Source: an uncultured Chloroflexia bacterium (GTDB taxonomy: Bacteria; Chloroflexota; Limnocylindria; Limnocylindrales; CSP1-4). Taken from it: DNA of 64,000 bases. Position 1 is the first letter of the stretch. Each line of letters opens with the position of its first letter. The notes beneath the pieces were generated by a model. That model ran no database searches. It was not told the DNA's origin and saw nothing but the letters and a program-made list of their open reading frames with translations. Below are positions 1,796 to 37,261 of this stretch, piece by piece. The translations under genes were made by a program, and so were the position numbers. The stretch is from NCBI GenBank assembly GCA_963755285.1, contig CAVWJB010000005.1, forward strand, positions 94,433-158,432. Direction: 5' to 3'.

Positions 1796-2065
1796 TCAGG
1801 GGCGCAGGTGCTGGGGTGCGTACGGGAGGAGCGCCACGTGGCGGGCCCGCTTCAGGGCAACCGCCAGCTCGCGCTGGTGACCGGCGCAGGTGCCGGTCTT
1901 GCGGCGCGGCTCGATCTTGGCCCGCTCCGACAGGTAGCGGCGGAGGCGGTTGACCTCCTTGTAGTCGATCTGGACCGTCTTGTCCGCGCAGAACGCGCAG
2001 ACCTTCCGGCGACGTCGATCGCGGTAGTAGTCGTCGCGCTTCTTGGATCGGGTAACGGGTGGCAT
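1796..2065 (-). CDS. rpsR: 30S ribosomal protein S18
   Basis: 89-aa ORF; [53 protein letters not shown] is canonical S18. Confidence 0.9.
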
Positions 2066-2110
2066 CTTCGTCGTGGACTCCGTGCTGGGTGGTCGGGTGG
2101 GTCGGTTCGA

Positions 2111-2584
2111 TCAGAAGGGCAGGTCGTCGAAGTTCCCGTCCTCGAACTTCTCGCCGCCGCCGCCGCCGCCGTCGCCGTCGCCGGCAGGGGCGGGAGCCGG
2201 ACGGCTCGGGCGGCCGGCGGGTGCCGCTGCGGCGCCCTCCTCCGAGTCGTCGCGGGTCCGTCGCTCGAGGTTCGTCACCTGGTTGGCGACGAGCTCGGTG
2301 GTGTACCGCTTCTGGCCGGTCTGGTCCTCCCATTGGCGGGTCTGGAGCCGGCCCTCGATGTACACCTTGTTGCCCTTGCGCAGGTACTCCGCGGCTCGCT
2401 CGGCCTGCTGGCCCCAGACGACCACGCGGAACCACTCGGTCTCTTCCTGCCACTCGCCGGTCTGGTTCTTGTAGTTCCGGTTCACGGCGACCGTGAACTG
2501 GGTCACCGCCTGACCGCTCGGGGTGTAGCGCATCTCGGGATCGCGGCCGAGATTGCCGATGATCATCGCCTTGTTGAGCGACAT
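2111..2584 (-). CDS. ssb: single-stranded DNA-binding protein
   Basis: OB-fold N-terminus MSLNKAMIIGNLGRDPEMRYTPSGQAVTQFTVAVNR..., Gly-rich tail ending in the acidic DDLPF. Start chosen at ATG 2584, preceded by GGAGG on the minus strand; the longer ORF to 2743 was rejected. Confidence 0.88.
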   Translation of the reverse strand: MSLNKAMIIGNLGRDPEMRYTPSGQAVTQFTVAVNRNYKNQTGEWQEETEWFRVVVWGQQAERAAEYLRKGNKVYIEGRLQTRQWEDQTGQKRYTTELVANQVTNLERRTRDDSEEGAAAAPAGRPSRPAPAPAGDGDGGGGGGEKFEDGNFDDLPF

Positions 2585-2615
2585 GGCCCTGCCTCCGGTG
2601 TGCTGGGGTGGGAGG

Positions 2616-3053
2616 TCAGTCGATGGCGGCCGGAGCGGCTTCGCTCTCGGACTCGTCGATCTGCTCGCCGGTCGGCTCCTCGTCCTCGTCCTCGACGGAC
2701 GGGAGCTCGTCGGCCTCGAGCTCGAGCTCGGTCTCGTCACCACCCTCGCGGCGGGTCGACCTCGTCGGACGCTCGACCCGGGTGACGAGGTGGCGCAGGA
2801 GCTCCTCGGTGATCAGCAGGCTGCGTTCCAGCTCGACGATCGACTCGGCCGGGGCCTCGAAGATCACGATGTGGTACGAGCCTTCGCGGTGCCGGTCGAT
2901 CGGGTAGGCCAGCCGGCGCCGGCCCCACGGGGCGACCTTGACGATCTGGCCGCCGCCGGCGGTGATCTGGCGAGTAGTCCGGTCGATGATCGCCTGGCTG
3001 CGGTCGTCGGCGATGTCCGGACGGAGAACGAGCATGAGTTCGTAGCGGCGCAT
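2616..3053 (-). CDS. rpsF: 30S ribosomal protein S6 (acidic C-terminal tail)
   Basis: MRRYELMLVLRPDI... is typical of S6; rpsF-ssb-rpsR order; AAGGAG upstream. Confidence 0.88.
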   Translation of the reverse strand: MRRYELMLVLRPDIADDRSQAIIDRTTRQITAGGGQIVKVAPWGRRRLAYPIDRHREGSYHIVIFEAPAESIVELERSLLITEELLRHLVTRVERPTRSTRREGGDETELELEADELPSVEDEDEEPTGEQIDESESEAAPAAID

Positions 3054-3296
3054 TTCCGCGCATCACTCCTTCCTGTGGGATCGCCCCGCGTGGCGGCCGG
3101 ACGTCGACGCCCAGGCGCCGGTCGGGTCCGCTGCGGAGCCGAAAGGAAACATGACGAGTCTAGCATGGGCCGGCGGCAGGCTCCCCACGACCGCTCGGTC
3201 CGCGGCGCGGATCGTCGAGCCCCGAGCCCGGTCCGGGGCCGGCTCGATGTATCCTGTTCGTCGGTTCCATCCGACCTCGCCGCCCCTGGAGATCAC
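3054..3296. promoter_or_regulatory. divergent intergenic region between rpsF (minus) and the REC-ParA gene (plus); presumed promoters for both
   Basis: 243-bp gap between divergent start codons. It is locally less GC-rich (aaaggaaacatgacgagtctagcatgg). Confidence 0.3.
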
Positions 3297-4520
3297 GTGC
3301 CCTCGAGCTCCATCCTCCTCCTCGAAACCGATGCCAAGGCCGGCCAGACGATCGGCGCAGTCCTGACCGGCGTCGGCTACGCCGTCGAGATCGTGAAGGA
3401 TCCCGCCGAGGCAATCCGGACCGCGGCCGACTACAGCCTGGTCGTCATCGACGTCATCGGTTCGGGCGCGACCCCGGCCGACGTCTGCCGGGAGATCCGG
3501 GCCACCCCGAGCCTGTCCGCGATCCCGGTCCTGTGCCTGACCCAGACCGACGACGTCGAGGACCGGATCCTGTTCCTCGAGTCCGGCGCCGACGACGTGA
3601 TCGCCAAGCCCTTCGACAGCCTCGAGCTCGAGGCGCGCGTCGAGGCGCTCCTCCTGCGCTTCCAGCGCTCGGCCGGGATGCCGACCTCGACGTCGGGCGT
3701 CGGCCTCATCGATCGGCCGCGCCGGATGGTCGCCGTGTACAGCCCGAAGGGCGGGGTCGGGACGACGACGATCGCGGTCAACATCGCGGTCGCCCACGCC
3801 CAGTCACGGCCGGGACGGGTGTTGATCATCGACCTCGACCTCCAGTTCGGGCAGGTTGCGACCCACCTCAACGTGACCCCGCGCCAGACGATCGCCGACC
3901 TCGTCCGCGACGAGCAGTCCCAGCGCGAGCCCGAGCTGTTCCGGACCTACGCCGCCCACCACAGCTCCGGTCTCGACCTCCTGGCGGCGCCCGGCTCGCC
4001 CGAGCTCGCCGAGGTCGTCACGCCGACCCACGTCGAGCGGATCCTCCAGACGGCCCTGCTCGCCTACGACGCGGTCGTCGTCGATGCCGGCTCGACGCTC
4101 GACGAGCGGTCGCTCGGCGCTCTCGAAGGGGCCGAGGTCGTGATCCTGCCGGTGTACGGCGAGATCTCGGCGCTCAAGGCCGTCCACGCGTTCGTCGACT
4201 ACGTCAACGAGGCGGGCTCGATCTCGACGAAGACGACCTTCGTGCTCAACACGATGTTCCCGAAGGAAGTCCTCAAGATGCGCGACGTCGAGGCGGGGCT
4301 CGGCGCCAAGGTGTCCCAGACCCTGCCCTACGATCCGTTCCTGTACCTCAAGGCCGTCAACGAGGGCAACCCGGTCGTCCTCGGCGCCGCCCGAACCCCG
4401 GTTTCGGCAGCCCTGACGAGCCTCGCAGCGCTGGCCTTCGGCGAAAAGGCGACAGCGGTCCACGCGACCAGCGACGAGCGCAAGTCGCGCGGGCTCGGCA
4501 GCCTCCTCAAGCGAACCTGA
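3297..4520 (+). CDS. response-regulator receiver domain fused to a MinD/ParA-family P-loop ATPase (CpaE/TadZ-like), orphan
   Basis: GTG start at 3297 with GGAG 8 nt upstream. N-terminus SSILLLETDAKAG...VIDVIGSG...DDVIAKPF is REC-like. The C-terminal half has the deviant Walker A MVAVYSPKGGVGTTTIAVNIA and a MinD/ParA fold. The 655-aa ORF 2553..4520 is truncated because its 5' part overlaps rpsF/ssb antisense. Confidence 0.72.
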   Translation: MPSSSILLLETDAKAGQTIGAVLTGVGYAVEIVKDPAEAIRTAADYSLVVIDVIGSGATPADVCREIRATPSLSAIPVLCLTQTDDVEDRILFLESGADDVIAKPFDSLELEARVEALLLRFQRSAGMPTSTSGVGLIDRPRRMVAVYSPKGGVGTTTIAVNIAVAHAQSRPGRVLIIDLDLQFGQVATHLNVTPRQTIADLVRDEQSQREPELFRTYAAHHSSGLDLLAAPGSPELAEVVTPTHVERILQTALLAYDAVVVDAGSTLDERSLGALEGAEVVILPVYGEISALKAVHAFVDYVNEAGSISTKTTFVLNTMFPKEVLKMRDVEAGLGAKVSQTLPYDPFLYLKAVNEGNPVVLGAARTPVSAALTSLAALAFGEKATAVHATSDERKSRGLGSLLKRT

Positions 4521-23904: not shown

Positions 23905-25113
23905 TCAGGAAGCCGAGCGGCGGGCCGGTCGGCCGGCCGCGGCGAGCTGGGCGCGCTTCCGATCGTCGCGGTTGTGCCAGACGACGAGGAGCGGTGCCGC
24001 GTTGAAGATCGAGGAGTACGTTCCCGAGACGATCCCGATGAGCAGGGCGAGCACGAAGTAATACGTCGCGGAGCCGCCGAACAGGAGCAGCGCCGTCAGC
24101 GTCAGGACGACGGTCAGGCTCGTGTTGATCGAGCGGGCGAAGGTCTGCAGGATCGAGTGGTTGACGATCCGGTCGAACGGCTCGCCGACATGCCGCGCCC
24201 GGTTCTCGCGGACCCGGTCGTAGACGACGATCGTGTCGTGGACGCTGAACCCGATGACGGTCAGCACGGCGGTCACGAACAGGGCGTCGATCTGGACGTG
24301 GAAGAACGTGCCGAGGATCGCAAACGTCCCGATCACGACGAGCACGTCGTGGACGAGCGCGACGAGGGCCGTCGCGCCGAACCGGAAGTCGTTGAAGCGG
24401 ATCGTCATCCAGATCAGGATCCCGATCGAGCCGAGCACCACCAGGAGGGCCGCCTGCTGGGTCAGCTCCTCGCTGATCACCGGTCCGACGGTCGACAGCG
24501 AACGCTGGGCGACGATCGGTCCGAGCTCGTCCTGGAGGCCGGCGGCCACCTCGCCGAACTTACCGGTCGTCGGCAGGTTGAGACCCCCGGTTCCAGGGCT
24601 GGCCGACGGACCCGGCGACGTACCCGGGCTGGCGACGGCCGACGCGCCCGGCGAGGCCGACGGGCCGGCCGAGGCCGATGCACTCGGGCTTGCGGCCGAC
24701 GACGCGCCCGGGCTGGCGGCGGCCGACGCTCCCGCCGAGGCCGAGGCGCCGGGAGCGGGGCTCGTGGACGCTCCGGCCGAGGGCGACGCGCCCGCCGACG
24801 GGCTCGGGCTGGGCGCCGCCGGAGGCGGCAGAGCGACCTGGCGTGACCGGATCTCGTAGAAGGCGTCGCTCGTGGCGATGACCGTCGCGTCGCTGATGCC
24901 CTGGCGCGCCAGGGCCGTCTTGATCTGGTCGGCGCCGACGTTCGGATCCTGGAACTTGATCTCCCACGAGGTTCCGCCCGTGTAGTCGATCGAGAACTGG
25001 AGCCCGACAGCACCATTCGTGATCGGCCCAAGGAGGATGAAGATCAGGCCGGGGATCGTCAGGAGCGCCGAGAACAGGAAGAACCAGCGGCGTTTGCCGA
25101 TGACGTCAAACAC
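23905..25113 (-). CDS. secF: protein translocase subunit SecF (with an about 80-aa S/A/P/G-rich insert in the periplasmic loop)
   Basis: 402 aa from GTG 25113 (V/MFDVIGKRRWFFLFSALL...), 8 nt downstream of the secD stop; six-TM SecF core ...FSVHDTIVVYDRVRENR... Confidence 0.85.
   Translation of the reverse strand: MFDVIGKRRWFFLFSALLTIPGLIFILLGPITNGAVGLQFSIDYTGGTSWEIKFQDPNVGADQIKTALARQGISDATVIATSDAFYEIRSRQVALPPPAAPSPSPSAGASPSAGASTSPAPGASASAGASAAASPGASSAASPSASASAGPSASPGASAVASPGTSPGPSASPGTGGLNLPTTGKFGEVAAGLQDELGPIVAQRSLSTVGPVISEELTQQAALLVVLGSIGILIWMTIRFNDFRFGATALVALVHDVLVVIGTFAILGTFFHVQIDALFVTAVLTVIGFSVHDTIVVYDRVRENRARHVGEPFDRIVNHSILQTFARSINTSLTVVLTLTALLLFGGSATYYFVLALLIGIVSGTYSSIFNAAPLLVVWHNRDDRKRAQLAAAGRPARRSAS
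24585..24835. repeat. coding low-complexity / short-period repeat (GAS-P-S-A units) inside secF
   Basis: Iterated ggcgacg/cccgggct/gccgag DNA units encoding (A/P)S(P)SAGAS...; not a CRISPR. Confidence 0.4.
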
Positions 25114-26499
25114 GGGCGCGGGCCTGGCGCGGTCCCCGTCCCGGTGTCCGGGCCAGGAACTCGTCCTCGCCGACGCCCCACAGGCTCGCCCGTCGCGCGA
25201 AGTTCTGCTGGACGACGACCCGCAGGAGCGTCCTGGAGACCGTCACCGCGGTGAACATCGACGTGAGCACGCCGATGATCAGGACGAGCGCGAAGCCCTT
25301 GATCGTCGGGCGAGCCGAACGCGTACAGGATGCCGGCGGTGATCAGGCTCGACACGTTCGAGTCGAGGATCGAGTTCCAGGCCCGGGCGAAGCCCGCTTC
25401 GACGGCGCTCGGCAGGGTCTTGCCGAGGCGAAGCTCCTCCTTGGTCCGCTCGAAGATCAGGATGTTCGCATCGACCGCCATGCCGACCGACAGGACGAAG
25501 CCGGCGATGCCGGCCAGGGTCAGCGTGACGGGGATCAGCCGGAAGACCGCCAGCACGACGATGGCGTAGTACAGGAGGGCGAAGTCGGCGACCAGCCCGG
25601 GCAGCCGATAGTAGATGAGCATGAAGCTGAACACGAGGCCGATCCCGATCACGGCCGCGATCAGGCTCGACTGGAGGAACTCCGCCCCGAGCGTGGCGCT
25701 GATCTGGGTGTCCTGGACCGCCTGGACCGGGAACGGCAGCGAGCCGTAGCGGAGGACGGTCACCAGCTCGTTCATCTGGGTCACCGCGTCCGGGCCCGAA
25801 CCCGTCGTGATGATCCCGGTCCCGCCGGTGATCGCCGAGTTGATGCTCGGGGCCGAGATGACCGTCCCGTCGAGCACGATCGCGAAGAAGTTCCCGACGT
25901 TGGCGCTCGTGTAGTCGGCGAACTTCTTGGCCGCGTCGCTCTTCAGGGCGAACGCGACGGCCGGCCGGCCGTTCTCGTCGGTCGACGGGTTGGCGCTCTC
26001 GAGCTGGTCGCCGGTGAACAGCGGGACGAGCGACTCATCCTTCGGGAGCGGCTGGCCGTCGATGATGCCGGTGGCGCTGCCGGTCGTCGACGCTGTTCCG
26101 TACTTGTCGGGTGGCAGCGGCACGAACGTCAGCTGACCGGTCGCGCCCGACGAGCCGTTCGATCTCCTCCCGGTCGGTCGCGCCGGGCAGCTCGACGACG
26201 ACCCGGTCGTTGCCGTGGACGACGACCACCGGCTCGGACACGCCGGTCGAGTTCACCCGTCGCTCGATGATGTCGCGGATGGTGGCCATCGCCGCCGCGT
26301 CGGGTGACTTGCCGTCGACCGGGATCGCCTGGTACTCGACCCGGAGGCCGCCCTGCAGGTCGAGCCCCAGCTTCGTCTCGAGGACCCGCGGGCCGGCCGC
26401 CGGGTCGCCGAAGGTGGGCAGCTTGAGACCCGGCCAGAAGTCGATCGCGAGCGCGAGCAGACCGATGACCACGATGAGGATGGGGACGAAGCGACGCAT
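25106..26499 (-). pseudogene. secD: protein translocase subunit SecD carrying two single-base frameshifts (near 26142 and at the GGG run 25308-25310). Most likely assembly indels in a functional gene.
   Basis: The N-terminal frame (26499...) ends ...EIERLVG| and the middle frame resumes |ATGQLTFVPLPPDKYGT...; the middle frame leaves SecD after ...ILYAFGS|. The +1 frame continues IKGFALVLIIGVLTSMFTAVTVSRTLL... to a TGA 4 nt after the secF GTG. Deleting one C from ccc restores GSPTIKGFA. Confidence 0.8.
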
Positions 26500-26545: not shown

Positions 26546-29266
26546 CTAGACGATCGGTTTGGCGGGCCGGAACCGTCCAAACAGGTAGGCGCTTCCGAGC
26601 AGGACGACTCCCAGCGCCACGAGCGACAGCACCCGGTAGGCGACGTCGAGCGCGGCCAGATCGACCAGGAACACCTTGATGGTCACGAGCCCGAGCAGGA
26701 GGAGCCCGGCCTGCCTCGCCGGTCTGATGTCGGCGACCAGGCCGACCGCAAACGCAGCCGCTCCGAGGACCGCCCAGAGAACGCTCAGGGCCACCTGCGC
26801 CTGCTTCGCCAGCTCCTCCTCGCCGACCGATCCACCAAGACGGGCCTGGAAGACATCGACCAGCCCGACGGACAGCAGGTAGACCAGCGCGATCGCGGCC
26901 ACGGCGACGCGGACCGGCTCCCAGCGGTTTCGAGGATGGAGCCGGGCACAGACGGCCAGCGCGGCGGCAACGGCGCTGAGCGCGGCGGTCGTCCCATTGA
27001 TGAACGGCAGCCCAACCGCTGATCGGTCGGCGTCGACCACGAGTCGGTCGGGCGGCGCGACGCTGATCAGGATCGTCGCGATCCCGAGCCCGACGAGCGT
27101 GTCCGCCGCCCCCAGCCACGCCGCCCGTTCCGATGCCGGTCGCACCGTCGCGAGCTCCGCGTAGAGCACCGCCAGGCCGGACCAGACGACGACGACCGCA
27201 TCGAGCGGCAGCTCGAAGGTGACTCCATAGGCGACGATCCCACCGGCCAGGAGACCGCCGCCCAAGCGCACCGCCGGCCGTCGATCGATCAATCCGATCG
27301 CCAGCGCCGCGACCGTGAGGATCACGATCGTGGCGCCGCCCGCATCGGCGAATGGGACGACCGGCGGTGCGACGCGGAACAGGTCGTCGAGCGGGAGCTG
27401 GACCCGGAGCGCGTACCAGAGCCCCGTCCCGAAGGCGACCGCGCCGGCGAACCAGACCGATCGCTCGAGCCGCGCGGCAATCCAGGCCGAATCCGGCGCG
27501 ACGTGAGCCGGCCAATCGTGGCGGGTCAGCACCTGCCGGTCGAGCCAGATCGCGCCGACGGCCAGGATCGACCAGCCGAGGAGCACCGGCGCGCCGTCGA
27601 GCTCGAATGGAAGGACGTAGACCGTCAGGAGGACCGCAACCGAGATGACGGTCGCCCGCTCCCAGGCAACTTGGAGGATCCAGGCCGCGAGGACGGTCGC
27701 CGCGATCACGAATGCCGCCGCGACGCCGGTCGTGTCGCCGAAGGGGACATCGGGACGGACGACGCTCGTCAGGTCGCGGAGCGGCAGCTGGACGAGGACG
27801 AGCTGGCCGATCGCGAGCGTGCCGAGCACGATCGCCGCCGCGCCGCTGTAGAGGTGGTCCCGTCGGACCCGGAGCCAGGTCAGGACGACCGCCTCGGCAG
27901 CCCACGCCACTGGGACCACGGAGCTGCCGAATTGGACGGGAACGGCGATCGTCAGGGCCGCCACGCCGGTTCCGGTCACGAGCAGGCCGAACAGGTGGCC
28001 GTCCCCTTCCGCCCTGAGGAACCAGCCGCCGAGGACGAAGTGGACGAGGGCGACGGCGGCCAGGAACGCCCCGCGGTCCGCGACGAGCGGCCCATCGAGC
28101 AGGGCGAACCCGGCTCCAACGAGGAACGCCGCGTTGGCGACGACGAGCAGTGCGGTGGCCGGCCGCAGGACGCGGCTGCGCCGCCGCATCTCCTCGCCGG
28201 CCGCCGCGATCGTGTTGATGAGCCAGAACAGCCCGAGGACGGTCAGCCCGATGGCGACGTCGACGTCCGGACCGCGGAGCCAGCTCGCCAGCTGAGGCGC
28301 GCTGAGGATGAACGCGATCCCGGGGAGTCGCGGCCACGACCTGAACAGCGAGATGATCGTCGTGCCGACCAGGGCGGTCCCGACGAACGCGACGGTGGCG
28401 AGGTCCGGCGACGCGCCCATCAGCGGCGGCGCCGCCAGGACTGCGAGCAAGCCAAATGCCGCGACGACCTGGGAGTTCGCCCGGATGGCGATCGCGGCCG
28501 CTGCGGCGGCGGCCAGAAGCGAGCCGGCCAGCCCGACCTCGACGGGGATCAGGCCGTAGAGCCGGGTCGCCGCGATCAGAGCGAGCGACACCGTGCCCAG
28601 CCCGACGGCGACAAGGACGTGGGCGACCTGCCGCTGACGAGCCTCCTCGAACAGCCAGGTGCCCAGCCCGAGTGCGAGCAGCCCACCGGCCAGGCCGAGG
28701 ATCACCCGGGCCTCGGGGCCGATCCAGCCGCGGCTGAAGGCGAGGCTCAGGAACAGGATCGCCCCGGCAATGAGAGCGATCCCGCCGACCCAGGCCAGGA
28801 TTCGTCCGGTCATCCGCTCCTCGAGGTCGGCCAGCGAGGCGCGACTGAACGGCGACAGTGGCTGCGATTCAGTGACCCAGGCGCTCTCGGTCGGCGCGAC
28901 TCCAGGCGCCACGCTCGATGGTTGACCCCAGCCCGCGATCGGTCCGGCCCGGGCAGCTGGAGCGGTCTTGGCCGAGGCAGGGGCCGGCGGCGACGGTCGT
29001 CCGGGGGTCACCCAGTGTGACGACGGACCTGGCTCTGGCGACGGCGCGACCGGGATGGTCGGCGTTGCCGCGGCAGCCGGCATTGACGCGGCTGTCGGCC
29101 TTGGCGGCACCGCTCGCGTTGCCTCGGCAGCGAGGTGCTCGTCGAACCGGCTCTGGAGCTGGTCGAGCTTGTGCTGGAGCTCCTCGATCCGATCCTCGAG
29201 CGGCCGATCCGACGACCGGTCGTCCGCCGACCGGTCGTCCGTCGGTCCCCCGTGCGGGTCAGTCAT
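26546..29266 (-). CDS. DUF2339 domain-containing large polytopic membrane protein (N-terminal coiled coil, then more than 25 TM segments)
   Basis: 907 aa from ATG 29266 (MTDPHGGPTDDRS...DRIEELQHKLDQLQSRFDEHL). The 242-codon upstream extension of the listed 1148-aa ORF is R/G/P-rich antisense-type junk. Confidence 0.68.
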   Translation of the reverse strand: MTDPHGGPTDDRSADDRSSDRPLEDRIEELQHKLDQLQSRFDEHLAAEATRAVPPRPTAASMPAAAATPTIPVAPSPEPGPSSHWVTPGRPSPPAPASAKTAPAARAGPIAGWGQPSSVAPGVAPTESAWVTESQPLSPFSRASLADLEERMTGRILAWVGGIALIAGAILFLSLAFSRGWIGPEARVILGLAGGLLALGLGTWLFEEARQRQVAHVLVAVGLGTVSLALIAATRLYGLIPVEVGLAGSLLAAAAAAAIAIRANSQVVAAFGLLAVLAAPPLMGASPDLATVAFVGTALVGTTIISLFRSWPRLPGIAFILSAPQLASWLRGPDVDVAIGLTVLGLFWLINTIAAAGEEMRRRSRVLRPATALLVVANAAFLVGAGFALLDGPLVADRGAFLAAVALVHFVLGGWFLRAEGDGHLFGLLVTGTGVAALTIAVPVQFGSSVVPVAWAAEAVVLTWLRVRRDHLYSGAAAIVLGTLAIGQLVLVQLPLRDLTSVVRPDVPFGDTTGVAAAFVIAATVLAAWILQVAWERATVISVAVLLTVYVLPFELDGAPVLLGWSILAVGAIWLDRQVLTRHDWPAHVAPDSAWIAARLERSVWFAGAVAFGTGLWYALRVQLPLDDLFRVAPPVVPFADAGGATIVILTVAALAIGLIDRRPAVRLGGGLLAGGIVAYGVTFELPLDAVVVVWSGLAVLYAELATVRPASERAAWLGAADTLVGLGIATILISVAPPDRLVVDADRSAVGLPFINGTTAALSAVAAALAVCARLHPRNRWEPVRVAVAAIALVYLLSVGLVDVFQARLGGSVGEEELAKQAQVALSVLWAVLGAAAFAVGLVADIRPARQAGLLLLGLVTIKVFLVDLAALDVAYRVLSLVALGVVLLGSAYLFGRFRPAKPIV

Positions 29267-29349: not shown

Positions 29350-31206
29350 TCAGGCCTCGAGCGTGGCCTTGATCCGAGCGGCCAGGGCAGGTCCGATCCC
29401 GGGCACGGCGGCGATCTGCTCGACCGGGGCGTCGCGGACCCGCTTCGTCGACCCGAACACGCGCAGGAGCGCCCGTCGTCGCTTCGGCCCGACGCCCGGC
29501 AGGTCGTCGAAGGCCGACCGGACCGAGGCCTTGGCCCGCAGGTCGCGGTGGTAGGTGATCGCGAAGCGGTGAGCCTCGTCGCGCAGGCGCTGGACGAGGT
29601 AGAGGGCCTGCGAGGTGGGAGGCAGGAGGACCGGCTCGGATCGCCCGGGCAGGAACAGCTCCTCGCGTTCCTTGGCCAGACCGGCCAGCGGCAGGTCGCT
29701 CAACCCGAGCTCGTCGAGGACCTCGGCCGCGGCGCTCACCTGGCCCTTGCCACCGTCGACGATCACGAGGTCGGGCAGCCGCCAGCGGAGCTCCTCCTCG
29801 CTCCCCTCGTCGCCGGCCTTCGCCCGGCGGAACCGCCGGCGGAGCACTTCCTGGTGGCTGGCGAAGTCGTTCGGGCCCTCGACCCCCCTGATCCGGAAGC
29901 GCCGGTAGTCGCCGGTCCGGGGCTTCCCATCCTCGAACACGACCATGCTGGCGACCGACTGGTCGCCCTGGAAGTTGCTGATGTCGTAGCACTCGATCCG
30001 GAGCGGTGGGTCGGCCAGGCCCAGGGCATCGGCCAGCTCGCGCAACGCGCCGAGCGTCTTGCCCTGGTCGGCCAGCCAGCGCGCCTGCTCGCGGGCCAGC
30101 GTCTCGCCCGCGTTGCGCACGGCGAGGGCCATGAGCTCGCGCTTCTCGCCGCGCTGGGGAACCCGGAGGTGGACCGGACCGTTCCGTCGCTCGGCGAGGA
30201 ACGCCTCGACCGCCGCCCGCTCGTCGGGTCCGGGCAGGCTCGGCACGAGGACCTGGTTCGGGATCGACGTCGCTCGCGCGTAGTACTGCTCGAGGAAGCC
30301 AACCAGGACCTCGTCGTCGGGCGCCTCACGGACGGCGTCGAGCAGGAAGACGTCGCGCCCGACGAGCTTGCCGTCGCGGACGACGAACAGCTGGACCGCG
30401 GCCTGGTTGTCCTGCCGGGCGATCCCGACGAGATCGAGCTCGGTCCGGGCGAAGGCGGCCATCTTCTGGCTCTCCATCGTCCGCTCGATCGCCCGGATCT
30501 TGTCCCGGAGGACCGCCGCTCGCTCGTAGTCGGTCCGTTCGGCGGCCGCGCCCATGTCCCGCTCGAGCGCCTTGACGAGCGTCTCCTGGCGACCCTCGAG
30601 GAAGAGCTCGACCTGCTCGATGTCGGCCCGGTAGGCGTCCTTCGAGATCGCTTCGATGCACGGACCCTGGCAGCGCTTGATGTGGTACAGGAGGCACGGA
30701 CGCTGGAGCGCGCGCTTGCCGTCCTTGATGTCGATCGTGCAGGTCCGGAACGGGAACAGCCGGCGGATGAGGTTCATCGATTCGTCGACGCTGCTGGCCG
30801 ACGCGTACGGGCCGAAGTAGCGGCTGCCGTCGGCCGGCAGCTTGCGGGTGCGCTCGATCCGCGGGAAGTCGTCGGCCAGCGTGATCTTGATGTACGGGTA
30901 GCTCTTGTCGTCCTTCAGCCGGACGTTGAAGCGCGGGGCGTAGCGCTTGACCAGGTTCGCCTCGAGGAGGAGCGCTTCGGACACCGAATCGGTCAGCGTG
31001 TAGTCAACGTCGGCGACCCGGTCGATCACGCTCCGGATCCGATGGACCTCGACCCCGACCGCCTGCTTCTGCCAGTAGCTCCGGACGCGCGAGCGCAGGC
31101 TCTGGGCCTTGCCCACGTAGAGCACGACGCCCCGGGCATCCTTCATCAGGTAGACGCCGGGGCGATCGGGCAGCTTCTTGAGGGTGGCGGCGAGCTCGGG
31201 TGTCAC
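29350..31206 (-). CDS. uvrC: excinuclease ABC subunit C
   Basis: 618 aa; GIY-YIG N-terminus (PGVYLMKDARGVVLYVGKA), UvrBC domain, C-terminal HhH. Confidence 0.9.
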   Translation of the reverse strand: MTPELAATLKKLPDRPGVYLMKDARGVVLYVGKAQSLRSRVRSYWQKQAVGVEVHRIRSVIDRVADVDYTLTDSVSEALLLEANLVKRYAPRFNVRLKDDKSYPYIKITLADDFPRIERTRKLPADGSRYFGPYASASSVDESMNLIRRLFPFRTCTIDIKDGKRALQRPCLLYHIKRCQGPCIEAISKDAYRADIEQVELFLEGRQETLVKALERDMGAAAERTDYERAAVLRDKIRAIERTMESQKMAAFARTELDLVGIARQDNQAAVQLFVVRDGKLVGRDVFLLDAVREAPDDEVLVGFLEQYYARATSIPNQVLVPSLPGPDERAAVEAFLAERRNGPVHLRVPQRGEKRELMALAVRNAGETLAREQARWLADQGKTLGALRELADALGLADPPLRIECYDISNFQGDQSVASMVVFEDGKPRTGDYRRFRIRGVEGPNDFASHQEVLRRRFRRAKAGDEGSEEELRWRLPDLVIVDGGKGQVSAAAEVLDELGLSDLPLAGLAKEREELFLPGRSEPVLLPPTSQALYLVQRLRDEAHRFAITYHRDLRAKASVRSAFDDLPGVGPKRRRALLRVFGSTKRVRDAPVEQIAAVPGIGPALAARIKATLEA

Positions 31207-31231
31207 ACCTCGATGCTACCGCGGGCGTGGA

Positions 31232-32182
31232 TCAGGGCGACGCGACGACCGGCCGCAGCGGGAACGGCAACGGCCCCGAGCGAACCACGGCGACAAGATC
31301 GTTCCAGGCGACCTCTGCCCCGGCTTCGGTACCGATCGAGACCTGACCGACGCCATCGGTGATCGGCGAGTTGATGCTCGGTGCCGAGAGGACCGTCCCG
31401 TCCATCACGATCGCGAAGAAGTCGCCGATGTTCGCCATCGTGTAGTTGGCGAAGATCTGCCGCGCGTCCTGGTCCAGCGTGAACGACACTGCCGGGCTAC
31501 CGTTCTGATCCGTCACGCGATCGGCGCTGACGAGGTGGTCCCCGCTGAAGAGGGGCCGAAGCGACGAGTCTGCCGGCAGCGGCTGTCCATCGACGATGCC
31601 GGTTGGGCTCCCGGTCGTCGAGGCGGTCCCGTACGTTTCGGGGGGCAGGGGCACGAACGTCACCTGCCCGACCTCCGTGAGGAGTCGCTCGACAGCCGCC
31701 ACGTCGACTCCGACCGGCAGGTCGACGACGACCCGGTCCTGGGCATCGATGTCGACAACCGGCTGGGCGATCCCGGTCGCCCGGAGCCGCTGAGCAACGA
31801 TGTACCGGATCTCGTCCAGGGCCGCCGCGTCCGGCCCGTTGCCACTAACGGCTTCCGGCTCGAAGGTCAGCCGCTGCACGGACACCGTCGACGCCGATGG
31901 GGACACCGACGGGTTGGCACTGCTTCCGGCCTGGATCCCCCGCGAGGTCAGGCCATATCCGACGACTCCGATCGCGACGACAACGACCGCCAGCCCGATC
32001 GCCAGCGACAGCCGACGAGCGCCGCCCGCTGACACGGCGGTCCGAACGGACGGCCAGAAGCGTCGCTGGCTCGTCCGGCCAATCGTGGACCGGACGGTCT
32101 GCACGACCTGGTCCGACAGCTCGGTCGGACCCAGCTCCAGCCAGTCCTGGATGACGCGGTCGAAGTCGCGCTGGGTGCTCAT
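31232..32182 (-). CDS. anti-sigma factor (single TM) whose extracytoplasmic domain is a SecD P1 (base plus head) domain paralogue
   Basis: 316 aa from ATG 32182, which overlaps the ECF sigma stop (ATGA). Short cytoplasmic N-terminus, one TM helix (LSLAIGLAVVVVAIGVVGYGL), then about 60% identity to this window's SecD over about 200 aa (VTFVPLPPETYGTASTTGSPTGIVDGQPLP...FFAIVMDGTVLSAPSINSPITDG vs the SecD equivalents), also visible at DNA level. Confidence 0.6.
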   Translation of the reverse strand: MSTQRDFDRVIQDWLELGPTELSDQVVQTVRSTIGRTSQRRFWPSVRTAVSAGGARRLSLAIGLAVVVVAIGVVGYGLTSRGIQAGSSANPSVSPSASTVSVQRLTFEPEAVSGNGPDAAALDEIRYIVAQRLRATGIAQPVVDIDAQDRVVVDLPVGVDVAAVERLLTEVGQVTFVPLPPETYGTASTTGSPTGIVDGQPLPADSSLRPLFSGDHLVSADRVTDQNGSPAVSFTLDQDARQIFANYTMANIGDFFAIVMDGTVLSAPSINSPITDGVGQVSIGTEAGAEVAWNDLVAVVRSGPLPFPLRPVVASP

Positions 32183-32732
32183 GCGATCCGCTCCGTCTTG
32201 GTGATCGCCCGCTCGTCGGCCTCGAGGGCGGCGCGCAGCGTCTGGGTCGCGTAGTGAAGCCTCGACTTGACCGTCCCGATGGGGATCTCGAGGCTCCTGG
32301 CGATCTCGGCCTGCTCCCAGCCGAGGTAGTGGTGCAGGATGAAGATCGGCCCGATGATCCGGGCGGCAGCCGGCTGAATCCACGCTCGAGCTGATCGCGA
32401 TCGACGACGCTCAACGTCGAGTCCGGCTGGCCTGGTCCGTCGAGCGGCAGCTCCACGATCCGTGCTCTCCAGCGTCGCTGCTGCCTCGCGGCTCGATAGC
32501 AGGCCCGGACGAGGAGTCTCGTGATCCACGGCTCGAAGCGGTCGGGATCGCGCAGGCCTGGCAGGTCGCGCCAGCCATCGATGAGGGCGACCTGGACGGC
32601 GTCCTCGGCCAGGTGGACGTCGCGCAGGATCCGGTAGGCGATCGCCAGCATGCGATCGCCGGTCATCGTCATCAGGCCGGCGAACGCCTCTGCGTCACCC
32701 TTCATCGCTCGTTCCACCAGGTCCCGCTGCAC
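32179..32732 (-). pseudogene. ECF (group IV) sigma-70 factor, sigma2 and sigma4 domains split by a -1 frameshift at a CCC/GGG run (about 32362-32364)
   Basis: Region-2 frame gives ...RILRDVHLAEDAVQVALIDGWRDLPGLRDPDRFEPWITRLL...LERGFSRLPP|; the region-4 frame resumes |(A)RIIGPIFILHHYLGWEQAEIARSLEIPIGTVKSRLHYATQTLR... Confidence 0.7.
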
Positions 32733-32853
32733 CCAGCGCTCCCTTCAGGCGTCGTCGCTGGGACGCTACACCCTGGATGGGGCACGAACGGCCTCGCGAG
32801 TTCGATCCTGGTGGATCGACCGTCGGGTGAGCGCTCCCGTGCAGACTGCCGCG

Positions 32854-34563
32854 ATGAATCTCCAGCCCGATGTCCAGGCTCGGCTCGAGCGTCTGACGAC
32901 CGACCAGCGGGCGGCGGCGACCGCACCGCCGGGGCCGGTGCTCTGCCTCGCACCGGCCGGGAGCGGCAAGACGACGACGCTCGTCGCCCGGATCGCCTGG
33001 CTCGTGGCGACCGGGACGCCGGCCGCGGAGATCGCGGCGATCGCCTTCAACAAGCGCGCCGCGGATGAGCTCGTCGAGCGGATCGACGCCGCACTGGCGC
33101 CGCTCGAGGTTCCGGCGGGGACGGTCCGCGTTCGGACCTTCCACGCCTTCGGTCGCGAGATCCTGCTCGCCGCGGGGCGCTCCGTCGATCCGCTCCTGGA
33201 TCGGGACGCCGCTCATCCGTGCGGTCGCCTCATGGGCCGGTCCCGCCGAGCGACGCCAGCTCGACACGTTGTTCTCGGCGCTCAAGCTCGAGCACCGCGT
33301 GACGGCCGACGTGATCGCCGACGACCCGGCCGCGGGACCGCGCGCTCGGGCGTTCGTCGCCTACGAGCGGGCGCTGGCGGACGCGTGGCGGACTCGACTT
33401 CGACGACCTCGTCGCACGCCCGCTCGCCATGCTCGGTTCGGATCCGGTCCAGCTGGCCTGGTGGCGCTCGGCCTGTCGCGAGCTGCTCGTCGACGAGGTC
33501 CAGGACGTCGATCGGTCCCAGCTCGAGCTGGCACTCCTGATCGCGGCGCCTGCCAACCGGATCTTCCTCGTCGGCGACGACGACCAGTCGATCTATGGCT
33601 GGCGGCTGGCGGACGTCCGGCGAGTCCTGGCGATCGCCGAGCGGCTGCCGGGACTCCGGCGCCACGACCTGATCACGAACTTCCGCTGCCCGGCCCCGGT
33701 CGTCGAGCGGGCCGTGCGGCTCGTCGAGCACAACACCGAGCGGTTCGCCAAGCGGATCGTTGCGCGGCCCGCCGCCGTCGGGCGCATCGTCCTCGCGCCG
33801 GACCCGACCGACGACGACGAACGCGCCTTCCACGTCCTGGCCAGCTGGTCGAGCGTCGCCGGCGACCGACGGCCACGAGACCCAGGCGATCCTCGCCCGG
33901 ACGAATCGCGAGCTGCTGCCCGCCGCCGCCGTCGCGCTCGAGCTCGGGATCCCGTTCCGCGCCGAGCGCTTGAGCCTGCCGCTCGAGGATCCGAGGATCG
34001 ACGATCTGCTGGCCGCGGTCGAAGCCACCGACGACGCGCCGCTCCTCGTTCGGATCGCGAGGCTGCGGAAGGGTGAGCCCGAGGTCGATCCAGCGGATGA
34101 GTCGCCCGACGATGGCCTGTCCTGGGACGAGATCGTTGCCGCGACGCTGGCCTGGGCAGCGCCGTTCGCGGACGGCGGCGAGTTCTGCCGGGCAGTCCGC
34201 CGGCGACGCGAGGACCTTGCCCGACTGCGTCGCGACGATGCCCGGCTGACGCTCGCGACCGCCCATTCGACGAAGGGTCTCGAGTTCGATCACGTCGCCG
34301 TCGTCGACATGGACGCCGGGCGGTTCCCGAGCCAGCGTTCGCTCGACGACGCCGATGACCCGGTCCGTGCCCTCGAGGAGGAGCGCCGCCTGGCCTATGT
34401 GGCGTGGACCCGCGCTCGCCGCTCGCTGACCCTCGTGTACGACCCGGCCGCGCCGAGCCGCTTCCTGCTCGAGGCCTTCGATCCGGACGAAGATGACGGC
34501 CCCAGGCTGACGATCCGTAGCGTCCCGTCAGCCAGTCGCACACGGCTCACGAGATTCGAATGA
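32854..34563 (+). pseudogene. UvrD/Rep-family (superfamily 1) DNA helicase, short form, spread over four frames (three frameshifts near 33210, 33388 and 33850)
   Basis: Successive frames carry Walker A LCLAPAGSGKTTTLVARIAW; then ...GLDFDDLVARPLAMLGSDPVQLA..LLVDEVQDVD..VGDDDQSIYGWRLA; then ...TLATAHSTKGLEFDHVAVVDMD...RRLAYVAWTRARRSLTL. Confidence 0.62.
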
Positions 34564-35693: not shown

Positions 35694-37261
35694 GATGCGC
35701 CCCGCCCCGAAAGGACGGCGGGGACGGTCCGGACCAGAATCTGAAGATCGAGCCCCAAGGACCAGCGCTCGATGTACTCGAGATCGAGACGGAGCCAATC
35801 CTCGAAATCGGTGATCTGGTTTCGACCGGCGACTTGCCAAAGACAGGTGATCCCGGGCTTCACGGCAAGCTTGGCCCGCTGTCGCTCCGAGAATCGGGCG
35901 AATTCGCTCTGGAGCGGCGGACGCGGACCGACCAGGCTCATGTCGCCGACGAGCACGCTCCAGAGCTGGGGCAACTCATCGAGGCTGTAGCGTCGCAGGA
36001 TCCGTCCGACGCGCGTGATCCGAGGATCGCCGCGCATCTTGAAGACGGGGCCTGACATCTCGTTGGCCCCTTCGAGCGCCGCCTTGAGCTCATCGGCATT
36101 GGTCACCATGCTCCGGAACTTGAAGCCGGTGAACGGCCGCCCAGCGCGTCCCACGACACGCCACCGGTAGAGCACCGGTCCCCCGTCACCAAGCTTGATG
36201 GCCAGTGCGATCGCTGCGAGCAACGGGCTCAGGACCACGAGCAGGGTCGCGGAGACGACGACATCGAGGATGCGCTTGGCGGCTCGTTCGGCCGGCGAAC
36301 GGCGAGATCGTGACGATACCGTCTCGCGGGGCGGGTACGGGTCCGCCGTCGTCATCTCCTTCGACTCGAGGCGCTTCGACCGGCCCGCGCTGGTCGCGCT
36401 GGTCGCGAGGACCCGGACGATCCCGGCCGCCAATCCCGCTGCGATGCCCGCATACACAGCGGCATTCACCAGCATCGGATAGCGCGGCGCGATGTTCTTC
36501 CGGTGGTAGAGCACGAGCGAGCGATGGAACTGCCAGACGGTCCGGAGCGGCCGCTGCCCGGTGCTGGTCCCCTTGTGATGCTCGACGACGACGCCAGGGT
36601 GATAGACCACTCGCCAATCCGCCTGCCGAGCGCGCCAGCAGAGATCCTCGTCCTCGCAGTACAGGAAGAACCGCTCGTCAAACCCTCCGATCTGCTCGAT
36701 CACGCGGTGCGGCATCAGCATGAACGCGCCGACCACCGAATCGACGTCTGCCAACTCGTGCTCGTCGAGGTAGGACAGGTAATAGCGGCCAAAGCGCCGG
36801 TGGCGCGGAAACGCCCGGCTGAGCCCCACGGACTTGTAGAAGTACGTCGCGGGGGTCTTGAACGAGCGTCGAGCGGGCGGATCCAGCCGTCCGTCGGGAA
36901 GCAGGATCCGGGCGCCAAGGATGCCCACGTCGGGGTTCGCTCGAAGGTGGGCCAGACCGGTCGAGATGGCGTCCGGGGCGACCAGAGCATCGGGGTTCAG
37001 GAAGAGGATGAACTGACCCCGAGCGACCCGGAGCGCCTGGTTGTTTGCCGCCCCGTAGCCGACGTTGCGAACGTTGCTGATCAGCCGGGTTCCCGGGAAG
37101 ACCTCCGTCGCGGTCGCGCTGCCGTCCTTCGATGCGTTGTCGACGACGAAGACCTCCGTGTCGGGCGGCACGGCCGCGACCAACCGCGAGAGGCACTCGC
37201 GCAGCAGCGGACCACCGTTGTAGTTGACGATGACGACCGAGAGCGACGGTCGGGCGGTCAT
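35690..37261 (-). CDS. bifunctional protein: N-terminal GT2 glycosyltransferase fused to a C-terminal PglC/WecA-type small phosphoglycosyl transferase (Bac_transf domain)
   Basis: 523 aa. Residues 1-about 290: SVVIVNYNGG...VDNASKDGS...DEDLCWR (GT-A). Residues about 330-523: ILDVVVSATLLVVLSPLLAAIALAIKL...FKFRSM...DPRITRVGRILRRYSLDELPQLWSVLVGDMSLVGPRP...PGITCLWQVAGR. Start overlaps the upstream stop (ATGA). Confidence 0.75.
   Translation of the reverse strand: MTARPSLSVVIVNYNGGPLLRECLSRLVAAVPPDTEVFVVDNASKDGSATATEVFPGTRLISNVRNVGYGAANNQALRVARGQFILFLNPDALVAPDAISTGLAHLRANPDVGILGARILLPDGRLDPPARRSFKTPATYFYKSVGLSRAFPRHRRFGRYYLSYLDEHELADVDSVVGAFMLMPHRVIEQIGGFDERFFLYCEDEDLCWRARQADWRVVYHPGVVVEHHKGTSTGQRPLRTVWQFHRSLVLYHRKNIAPRYPMLVNAAVYAGIAAGLAAGIVRVLATSATSAGRSKRLESKEMTTADPYPPRETVSSRSRRSPAERAAKRILDVVVSATLLVVLSPLLAAIALAIKLGDGGPVLYRWRVVGRAGRPFTGFKFRSMVTNADELKAALEGANEMSGPVFKMRGDPRITRVGRILRRYSLDELPQLWSVLVGDMSLVGPRPPLQSEFARFSERQRAKLAVKPGITCLWQVAGRNQITDFEDWLRLDLEYIERWSLGLDLQILVRTVPAVLSGRGAS

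Follow-up and report, generated by a model that had tools for sequence, protein, structure and literature searches.

A SecD-type P1 domain on a putative membrane anti-sigma factor encoded with an ECF sigma factor in an uncultured Chloroflexota bacterium

Anti-sigma domains of class I comprise four helices within about 80-90 residues, and the zinc-binding anti-sigma (ZAS) motif reads H-x3-C-x2-C. In those of class II, the CnrY type, a very short cytoplasmic part of two helices, through which sigma-2 and sigma-4 are contacted, precedes a transmembrane (TM) helix; CnrY itself is small, has almost no outside domain and is accompanied by a separate sensor, CnrX. Envelope or secretion stress is sensed by the DegS-RseA-sigmaE and CssRS systems, in which PDZ-protease or histidine-kinase domains are the sensors. 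In the export complex SecDF, the base of the P1 domain packs against SecF P4 and the membrane domain and its head has been reported to contact the substrate; the evidence that the SecD P1 head captures substrate consists of a handful of structures and in vitro assays. RseA/sigmaE, RsiW/sigmaW and RsiV/sigmaV are examples of single-pass membrane anti-sigma factors and their extracytoplasmic function (ECF) sigma factors (reviewed in PMC8999054 and PMC7826278). Here we analyzed a stretch of 64,000 nucleotides (nt) from an uncultured soil Chloroflexia bacterium (assembly GCA_963755285.1, contig CAVWJB010000005.1, positions 94,433 to 158,432; "the window" hereafter), in which an ECF sigma gene overlaps the gene of a membrane protein, termed the partner, whose outside part is a SecD-type P1 domain.

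With a probability of roughly 0.7, we believe that the two genes encode a working pair of an ECF sigma factor and its membrane anti-sigma factor, and that in this branch a copy of the entire SecD P1 domain has taken the place of the usual outside sensor. The sigma/anti-sigma family to which the pair would belong appears to be large in uncultured soil Chloroflexota, with few named relatives (Candidatus Limnocylindrales). Loci and proteins used for comparison are cited below by their L and P numbers.

The sigma factor, its partner and the N-terminal module family

The region of interest lies on the minus strand of the window, which has about 70% G+C. The ATG of the partner (32182-32180) overlaps the TGA of the sigma reading frame (32181-32179) by four nucleotides (junction GCATGAGC); the ATGA overlap between the sigma stop and the partner start, as claimed in the original prediction, was thereby confirmed at 32182-32179. 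Once two extra bases are removed from the sigma gene (see below), its product of 183 amino acids (aa) matches Sigma70_r2 (3.6e-12), Sigma70_r4_2 (9e-14) and Sigma70_ECF. It has regions 2 and 4 only and is of the length expected for an ECF (group 4) sigma-70 factor, about 170-200 aa. The best NCBIfam match of the sigma orthologue was TIGR02983 (SigE family), below the cut-off of that model.

Two Pfam profiles matched the partner, both above their curated cut-offs (27): SecD_1st at residues 125-177 (E 1.7e-6, 27.8 bits) and SecDF_P1_head at residues 209-306 (E 1.5e-20, 73.6 bits). An AlphaFold2 model based on a 25-sequence alignment, with a mean predicted local distance difference test score (pLDDT) of 83.6, showed helices at residues 4-17 and 23-34, a disordered stretch, the TM helix (56-79) and a P1 domain with pLDDT >90 (101-312). 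When Foldseek was used to compare it with the PDB, the best matches were all SecDF structures, the top one being the isolated P1 domain of Thermus SecDF (3aqo, E 4e-17, TM-score 0.73 on the target); the identity of the partner P1 to the Thermus P1 is 28%. Within residues 1-55 there are seven Arg/Lys, including RTSQRR and R47/R56-57 just before the TM helix, and no Cys or His. As Arg/Lys residues precede the TM helix and the P1 homology follows it, an N-in topology fits, and the N-terminus is predicted to be inside and P1 outside. Together with the adjoining, co-oriented sigma gene, this predicted single-pass topology with an outside domain gives the generic layout of a membrane anti-sigma factor. 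The short cytoplasmic segment, the one TM helix and the extracytoplasmic SecD P1 domain had all been foreseen in the original prediction, which had named an AlphaFold model among its checks, and were borne out by Pfam, AlphaFold2 and Foldseek.

The protein is not a SecD. This identity was rejected because Pfam detected neither the SecD/SecF membrane domain (SecD_SecF_C) nor TM helices 2-6 in the partner, because its score against TIGR01129 was 95.8 bits (cut-off 244.4), and because its C-terminal end is at the P1 boundary, where TM helix 2 of SecD would begin, in all orthologues.

A profile of the first 47 residues, built from six homologues, was then used in an exhaustive HMMER search of 1.84 billion representatives. 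It matched 1507 clusters (50% identity) at E ≤ 1e-3, including 93 at E ≤ 1e-10; a word-index search with the N-terminal alignment returned 5 short fragments only. In nearly all of the 150 best matches the module was found at residues 1-47, and the full-length proteins were mostly 200-570 aa long. The consensus of the module is M-S/T-T-x-R-D-F-D-R-I-A-x-A-W-L-A-D-G-P-x-E-L-x-D-R-V-L-D-A-x-x-x-E-V-H-x-T-x-Q-R-R. The C-terminal parts of the 113 members scanned carried PD40, Kelch, NHL, cupredoxin, PsbP-like or SnoaL-like domains, most had no Pfam domain, and P1 was present in 2 of the 113.

Module proteins were encoded directly behind an ECF sigma gene in every context checked (P0102, which is of the PD40 type, P0093, P0112 and the NHL-type protein of L021), with an overlap of 4 nt wherever gene calls existed. 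These sigma factors belong to one subfamily (54-64% identity) with the tail ...GTVKSRLxYATxxLRAALxADAR; metagenomes contain very many members of this subfamily, and those that bear an organism name are all Candidatus Limnocylindrales. The P0093 locus carries a second sigma/partner pair on the opposite strand, and two such pairs stand back to back in L013 (1-1204, minus strand; 1953-3310, plus strand), the family being multi-copy within a genome. P0152 and P0228, in which the C-terminus of a sigma factor is joined to the module, are read-through artefacts. The P1 protein P0074, whose N-terminus differs from the module but looks similar, is likewise encoded by a gene that an ECF sigma gene overlaps.

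As the proteins combine a conserved cytoplasmic module, a TM helix and swappable outside domains with strict coupling to a sigma gene, the pattern would be the standard signature of an anti-sigma family, and we infer sigma binding from the gene pairing. In MAFFT alignments, sigma and module motifs were recurrently paired (DPDRFEPWL with DFDRIxxAWL; ATxxLRAALEADAR of the sigma tail with DRVLDAALDEV); the resemblance recurs across the family and is probably due to chance.

P1 domains also occur apart from this module, in other non-SecD proteins of the lineage. P0084 (549 aa) consists of a TM helix, P1 and a DsbA-like thioredoxin domain. P0077, a TM plus P1 protein of 270 aa, is encoded behind a maturase gene of the radical-SAM/SPASM type (SEC-C motif) that overlaps its own, next to a sulfatase gene (L017/L018, 2640-4813). 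Free-standing P1 modules are found here in settings involving exported proteins, and P1 may be a module for handling such proteins.

Conservation of the pair and its relationship to secD

In L001, L002 and L004 the gene order is uvrD-like helicase, ECF sigma, P1 protein (4-nt overlap), uvrC, secD, secF and recJ. When one genome per species of the GTDB was scanned with a profile built from 5 sequences, which reaches the P1-type subfamily only, the same N-terminus was found in 7 species, all with the order sigma, P1 protein (4-nt overlap), uvrC and secD. In total, the sigma-partner-uvrC-secD synteny was seen in no fewer than 8 genomes, between which SecD diverges by about 20%; the search for the same fusion in related genomes, as suggested in the original prediction, was thus successful. 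Short-read metagenomes of the Joint Genome Institute (JGI) added 6 loci with a sigma gene directly upstream in each; 3 of them reach the P1 part. The sigma/P1-protein pair is present on the short-read contigs L019, L022 and L023, and L022 continues into uvrC. Full-length homologues of the partner (P0002, P0003, P0004, P0017 and P0024) are 39-48% identical to it; exact look-ups of the window protein and of P0001 in a contig index gave no match.

The partner open reading frame (ORF) is intact in 7 of 8 genomes. Pairwise ratios of nonsynonymous to synonymous substitution rates (dN/dS) were 0.33-0.59 for the whole protein and 0.14-0.22 for the N-terminal 47 residues in closer pairs, the lowest of the protein. 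There is no second secDF at this position in the relatives examined (L001, L002, L004 and the 7 species representatives). As judged from these comparisons, a sigma factor with a P1-sensor partner is a conserved architecture and not debris.

BLASTP aligned the partner with the window's own SecD from residue 88 onward, after the TM helix, with 121 of 228 residues identical (53%, E 6e-72). The expected alignment of the P1 region with the window's own SecD was therefore found. At the DNA level, the identity is 72% over 596 nt (31834-31247 against 26304-25716), and a core stretch (31446-31357 against 25915-25826) is more similar, at 88% over 90 nt and 92% over 60 nt; no exact match is longer than 17 nt. 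Near-identity over tens of nucleotides, another claim of the original prediction, is correct in this respect; the stretch concerned encodes FFAIV.DGTV.SAPSI, the most conserved P1 motif.

The recent intragenomic duplication that had been deduced from this similarity is not supported by 72% DNA identity, 53-56% protein identity, a longest run of 17 nt and the separate (weakly supported) clusters in a neighbor-joining tree. In that tree, the SecD P1 domains had a bootstrap value of 74 for the wider clade and 99 for the four syntenic genomes, and the partner P1 cluster one of 60; the separation of partner and SecD P1 domains is only weakly supported. The P1 copy would be derived from an old partial duplication of the neighboring secD rather than a recent one. 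The P1 region of the window partner is 56% identical to its own SecD, as compared with 42-54% to the orthologous partners. Likewise, its 90-nt core is 85-88% identical to the secD genes of its own clade and 77-79% identical to other partner genes. Partial gene conversion from secD in this lineage is possible.

Compared with L004, identity falls to 65-81% within the sigma/partner cassette (about 32850-31050) but is mostly 93-99% on either side, and the transitions are abrupt. From this pattern, the entire cassette seems to have been exchanged for another allele through recombination. The island of divergence (31050-32850) also takes in the first 150 nt or so of uvrC.

Positions invariant in SecD (≥90% in 58 SecD sequences of the lineage) were compared with 12 partner sequences. 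In the head region (181-306), 23 of 31 such positions are kept, with a mean retention of 0.93. In the N-part of the base (98-180), only 13 of 36 are kept, with a mean retention of 0.45, and the LGLDLxGG motif that follows TM helix 1 of SecD is among those lost. This asymmetry fits the notion that the function of the head has been kept and the contacts within the SecDF complex have been lost; the base residues may have disappeared because the partner probably does not pack against SecF and the membrane domain.

Neighboring genes, frameshifts and the upstream motif

The sigma, partner, uvrC, DUF2339, secD and secF genes have the same orientation and are separated by short gaps (Table 1). The original prediction had placed the pair next to uvrC and 5 kb from secDF, which agrees with uvrC 25 nt downstream and with the position of secD. 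No convincing terminator was found between the sigma gene and secF, the sole predicted one being at chance level. Transcription read-through from the sigma gene into secDF is possible, if unproven. The DUF2339 gene occupies the position between uvrC and secD in this genome only and is absent there in 7 of 7 related genomes: the segment 29340-26552 has no counterpart in L001, L002 and L004, and the interval from the start of uvrC to that of secD, about 1.9 kb in L006, L008, L009 and L011, leaves no room for it, so that uvrC is immediately followed by secD in the relatives. The periplasmic part of SecF contains an Ala/Ser/Pro-rich low-complexity insert of about 80 residues (around 24500-24800), and its gene differs from that of L004 by an 18-nt in-frame indel at 24778.

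Table 1. Positions in the window of the genes, protein parts and upstream motif considered in this study
Feature	Coordinates	Strand	Remarks
ECF sigma factor gene	32179..32732	-	554 nt as assembled; 552 nt (183 codons + stop) after removal of extra bases 32360 and 32346
Putative anti-sigma factor (partner) gene	31232..32182	-	316 aa + stop; ATG overlaps sigma stop (ATGA)
N-terminal cytoplasmic module, residues 1-47	32042..32182	-	Two predicted helices; proposed sigma-binding part
TM helix, residues 56-79	31946..32017	-	AlphaFold2 helix, low-confidence flanks
Ser/Pro-rich linker, residues 80-100	31883-31945	-	Low confidence in AlphaFold2
Complete SecD-type P1 domain (base + head), residues 101-312	31247..31882	-	Pfam, BLASTP, Foldseek, pLDDT above 90
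uvrC	29350..31206	-	25 nt downstream of anti-sigma gene, same strand
DUF2339 membrane-protein gene, 906 aa, polytopic	26546..29266	-	Pfam DUF2339 E 5.8e-57; between uvrC and secD
secD	25106..26499	-	Split by 1-nt insertions at 26146 and 25308
secF, 402 aa	23905..25113	-	Pfam SecD_SecF_C E 4.7e-53; 8-nt overlap with secD end
Three-block motif upstream of sigma gene	32762..32806	-	Ends 30 nt before GTG start; conserved in orthologous loci

The sigma reading frame is interrupted in the window and intact in L001, L002, L004 and a Logan contig. Compared with the close relative L004, the window has extra bases at 32360 and 32346; the A at 32346 does not extend a homopolymer. Both insertions in secD lengthen short G or C runs, and with the two bases removed SecD has 463 aa and is near-identical to P0005 of a relative; the gene is also intact in a 95%-identical relative. 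The adjacent uvrD-like helicase gene (32650-34563, plus strand) differs from L004 by roughly six further 1-nt indels, all isolated (33210-33852). All these were obtained by listing indels against L004, as a GC frame plot was too noisy. Several of the 1-nt indels that split the helicase, sigma and secD genes adjoin GATC or CG-rich contexts.

Split genes were also seen in sister assemblies (uvrC and uvrD in L002, the partner gene in L006). The related metagenome-assembled genomes (MAGs) come from the Microflora Danica project, which used Nanopore sequencing (PMC12313526), and the window presumably belongs to the same project. The short-read Logan contig (1782 nt) encodes a partner identical at 315 of 316 residues (99.7%) and an intact 183-aa sigma factor (552 nt), with the same 4-nt overlap. 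In view of the helicase indels, the split genes in sister assemblies, the Nanopore origin of the relatives and the intact sigma gene of the Logan contig, the frameshifts in the sigma gene and secD are most likely errors of long-read (Nanopore) assembly, and gene calls in the window should not be trusted as regards frame. The statement in the original prediction that the partner follows an ECF sigma gene is thus partly upheld: the overlap and the sigma domains are real, but the sigma gene is not a single ORF as assembled.

Upstream of the sigma gene there is a motif of the form (A/T)TCGAAC-N17-CCCCAT-N4-GGTGTAGCGTC (ATCGAAC in the window), with fixed spacing in 8 of 8 orthologous loci. A near-identical motif precedes most of the paralogous sigma genes checked, including those whose partners are not of the P1 type (L012, 2243-2252; L021, 2162-2171; L024, 378-387). 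The 10-mer GTGTAGCGTC was never seen more than once in a fetched locus and always lies 30-50 nt ahead of a sigma start; the window has one exact copy. The motif is presumably the promoter of the sigma gene. Its GAAC block looks like an ECF -35 element; at 34 nt, however, GAAC and CGTC are too far apart to form a single ECF promoter. In L016, by contrast, the canonical TTGAAC-N17-CGTC is found. No copy of the motif precedes uvrC or secD in any fetched locus. Other matches in the window (35974-35994, 46453 and 61330) were discarded, being at chance level or inside coding sequence.

Proposed function, alternatives and comparison with known systems

If the partner is an anti-sigma factor, the pair might work as follows. 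As the ATGA overlap shows, the 183-aa sigma factor and the 316-aa partner are co-produced by translational coupling. The partner is predicted to insert with its N-terminus inside and P1 outside. Given the strict gene pairing, the two-helix N-terminal module of 47 residues would hold the sigma factor at the membrane. The P1 head would bind the same ligand as the SecD head, namely an unfolded or emerging exported polypeptide, and ligand binding or movement of the head might then free the sigma factor, possibly after the Ser/Pro-rich linker has been cut and the protein has then undergone intramembrane proteolysis. The freed sigma factor could drive its own conserved promoter, from which transcription may run on into uvrC and secDF. 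Such an architecture may let the cell monitor protein export. A more far-reaching version is possible but doubtful: in Limnocylindria-type Chloroflexota, the pair would be a receptor derived from the export machine, in which the free P1 head on the anti-sigma factor captures unfolded or stalled exported polypeptides, or reports the state of SecDF/SecYEG, and frees an ECF sigma factor, by which its own operon and the downstream secDF would be expressed more strongly; and the 47-residue module would represent a new minimal class of anti-sigma domain present in well over 1000 sensor proteins of this uncultured lineage.

Several observations weigh against a working sigma/anti-sigma pair with a P1 sensor. 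As assembled, region 2 of the sigma factor is in the frame 31845-32732 and region 4 in the frame 32179-32529, and not in one ORF (Pfam, ORF list). Residues 1-98 of the partner had no match in Pfam, NCBIfam or the PDB, in the first two even at E ≤ 10, and a sequence search of the PDB with the module profile gave chance matches only; the module matches no known anti-sigma domain family and lacks a zinc motif. In an AlphaFold2 model of the fusion P0228, which was obtained without sigma-2, from an unpaired alignment and without an inter-domain error map, sigma-4 reached pLDDT values of 87-92 and the module 50-72, and docking was not confident. Support for monophyly of the partner P1 domains is only 60%, and their dN/dS of 0.38-0.59, as compared with 0.05 for SecD P1 in the closest pair, indicates relaxed constraint. 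A search of the window and of some 190 kb from related loci revealed no further members of a regulon beyond the motif upstream of the sigma gene itself.

The missing homology to known anti-sigma domains and the failure of AlphaFold2 to dock the module on sigma-4 (in a fusion without sigma-2 and with an unpaired alignment) would also be expected if the partner were no anti-sigma factor but a holdase or chaperone for exported proteins, that is, a free SecD P1 domain that is co-expressed with the ECF sigma factor or is its target, and whose N-terminus serves membrane targeting or some other contact. P1-only proteins without a sigma factor do exist (P0077 and P0084). However, we consider this unlikely, as the module is the most constrained part of the protein in closer pairs, is common to proteins with unrelated outside domains, and stands directly behind one sigma subfamily in every context checked, which is a classic anti-sigma signature; a plain signal anchor would need no conserved cytoplasmic motif of 47 residues. 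It is very unlikely that the system is dead in this strain, with real insertions in the sigma gene and secD and a decaying locus. The frameshifts are present in the assembled sequence, and the A at 32346 is not explained by a homopolymer, but the adjacent helicase gene shows the same kind of isolated indels, genes are split in other assemblies of the same project, the related MAGs stem from Nanopore sequencing, the short-read contig with the 99.7%-identical partner has a sigma gene of exactly the window length minus 2, and secD, an essential-like gene, is intact in the 95%-identical relative.

The origin of the P1 domain allows two other explanations. A recent duplication of secD, or ongoing gene conversion from it, would account for a P1 domain that is closer to its own SecD than to the orthologous partners, for the similar bias of the 90-nt core and for a cassette whose history differs from that of its flanks. 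We regard this as quite unlikely, because the overall DNA identity and the longest exact run are low, the partner P1 domains group apart from SecD in the tree, the architecture exists in at least 8 genomes with SecD proteins about 20% different, and the most similar stretch is the most conserved P1 motif. Alternatively, the partner might be the truncated remnant of a second secD copy, the case that the original prediction itself had put forward as its refutation; indeed, no more than the first third of a SecD-like protein is present, at a distance of 5 kb from secDF. This is exceedingly improbable: neither the N-terminus nor the TM helix resembles SecD (BLASTP aligns the two proteins only from residue 88), the former is part of another large family, every orthologue stops exactly at the P1 boundary, the ORF has been conserved and its dN/dS is <1, and the relatives examined have no second secDF at this position. 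As for a pseudogene in general, which would be disrupted or unconserved and evolve neutrally, this status was rejected for a gene that is intact in 7 of 8 genomes, has a dN/dS of 0.33-0.59 and keeps the invariant residues of the P1 head.

If a working pair with a P1 sensor is indeed what the locus encodes, a free P1 domain coupled to a transcriptional read-out would provide a direct genetic reporter of P1 ligands, and the state of protein export would be added to the inputs of ECF signaling. The N-terminal module, for which there is no Pfam or NCBIfam model in spite of its 1507 clusters, probably marks the principal family of ECF anti-sigma factors in a soil lineage that is abundant. The locus would also be an example of domain shuffling in which the partial duplicate of an adjacent housekeeping gene apparently became a sensor. 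In the literature we found no description of a SecD P1 sensor on an anti-sigma factor or of the N-terminal module, a search that did not cover the supplements of the ECF classification paper, where an entry is possible.

How does the partner compare with described systems? Like RseA, RsiW and RsiV, it is encoded directly downstream of, and translationally coupled to, an ECF sigma gene, and its short N-terminal part in the cytoplasm is followed by one TM helix and an outside sensor, with sensors swapped within the family. Unlike in those proteins, the N-terminal part has about 45 residues with two predicted helices, no family match and no zinc motif, and the sensor is a SecD P1 domain. A class I anti-sigma domain (ZAS, zf-HC2/RskA) is not present, as the family profiles do not match, residues 1-55 contain neither Cys nor His, and only two helices are predicted. 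The short two-helix cytoplasmic part followed by a TM helix is reminiscent of CnrY, a resemblance of size and helix count alone, whereas the large outside domain of the partner is unlike CnrY. With the P1 domains of SecD and SecDF (PDB 3aqo, 3aqp, 5xap and 5yhf) it shares the whole base-plus-head fold and the head invariants, and it differs from these proteins in lacking the membrane domain and TM helices 2-6, in the loss of base residues, and in its N-terminus and TM helix. The proposed logic, in which unfolded exported protein outside the membrane would lead to a transcriptional response, is analogous to that of DegS-RseA-sigmaE and CssRS, but detection here would fall to a domain taken from the export machine itself. 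In summary, the overall layout is as in the classical single-pass anti-sigma systems, and what appears to be novel is the sensor domain and possibly the sigma-binding module.

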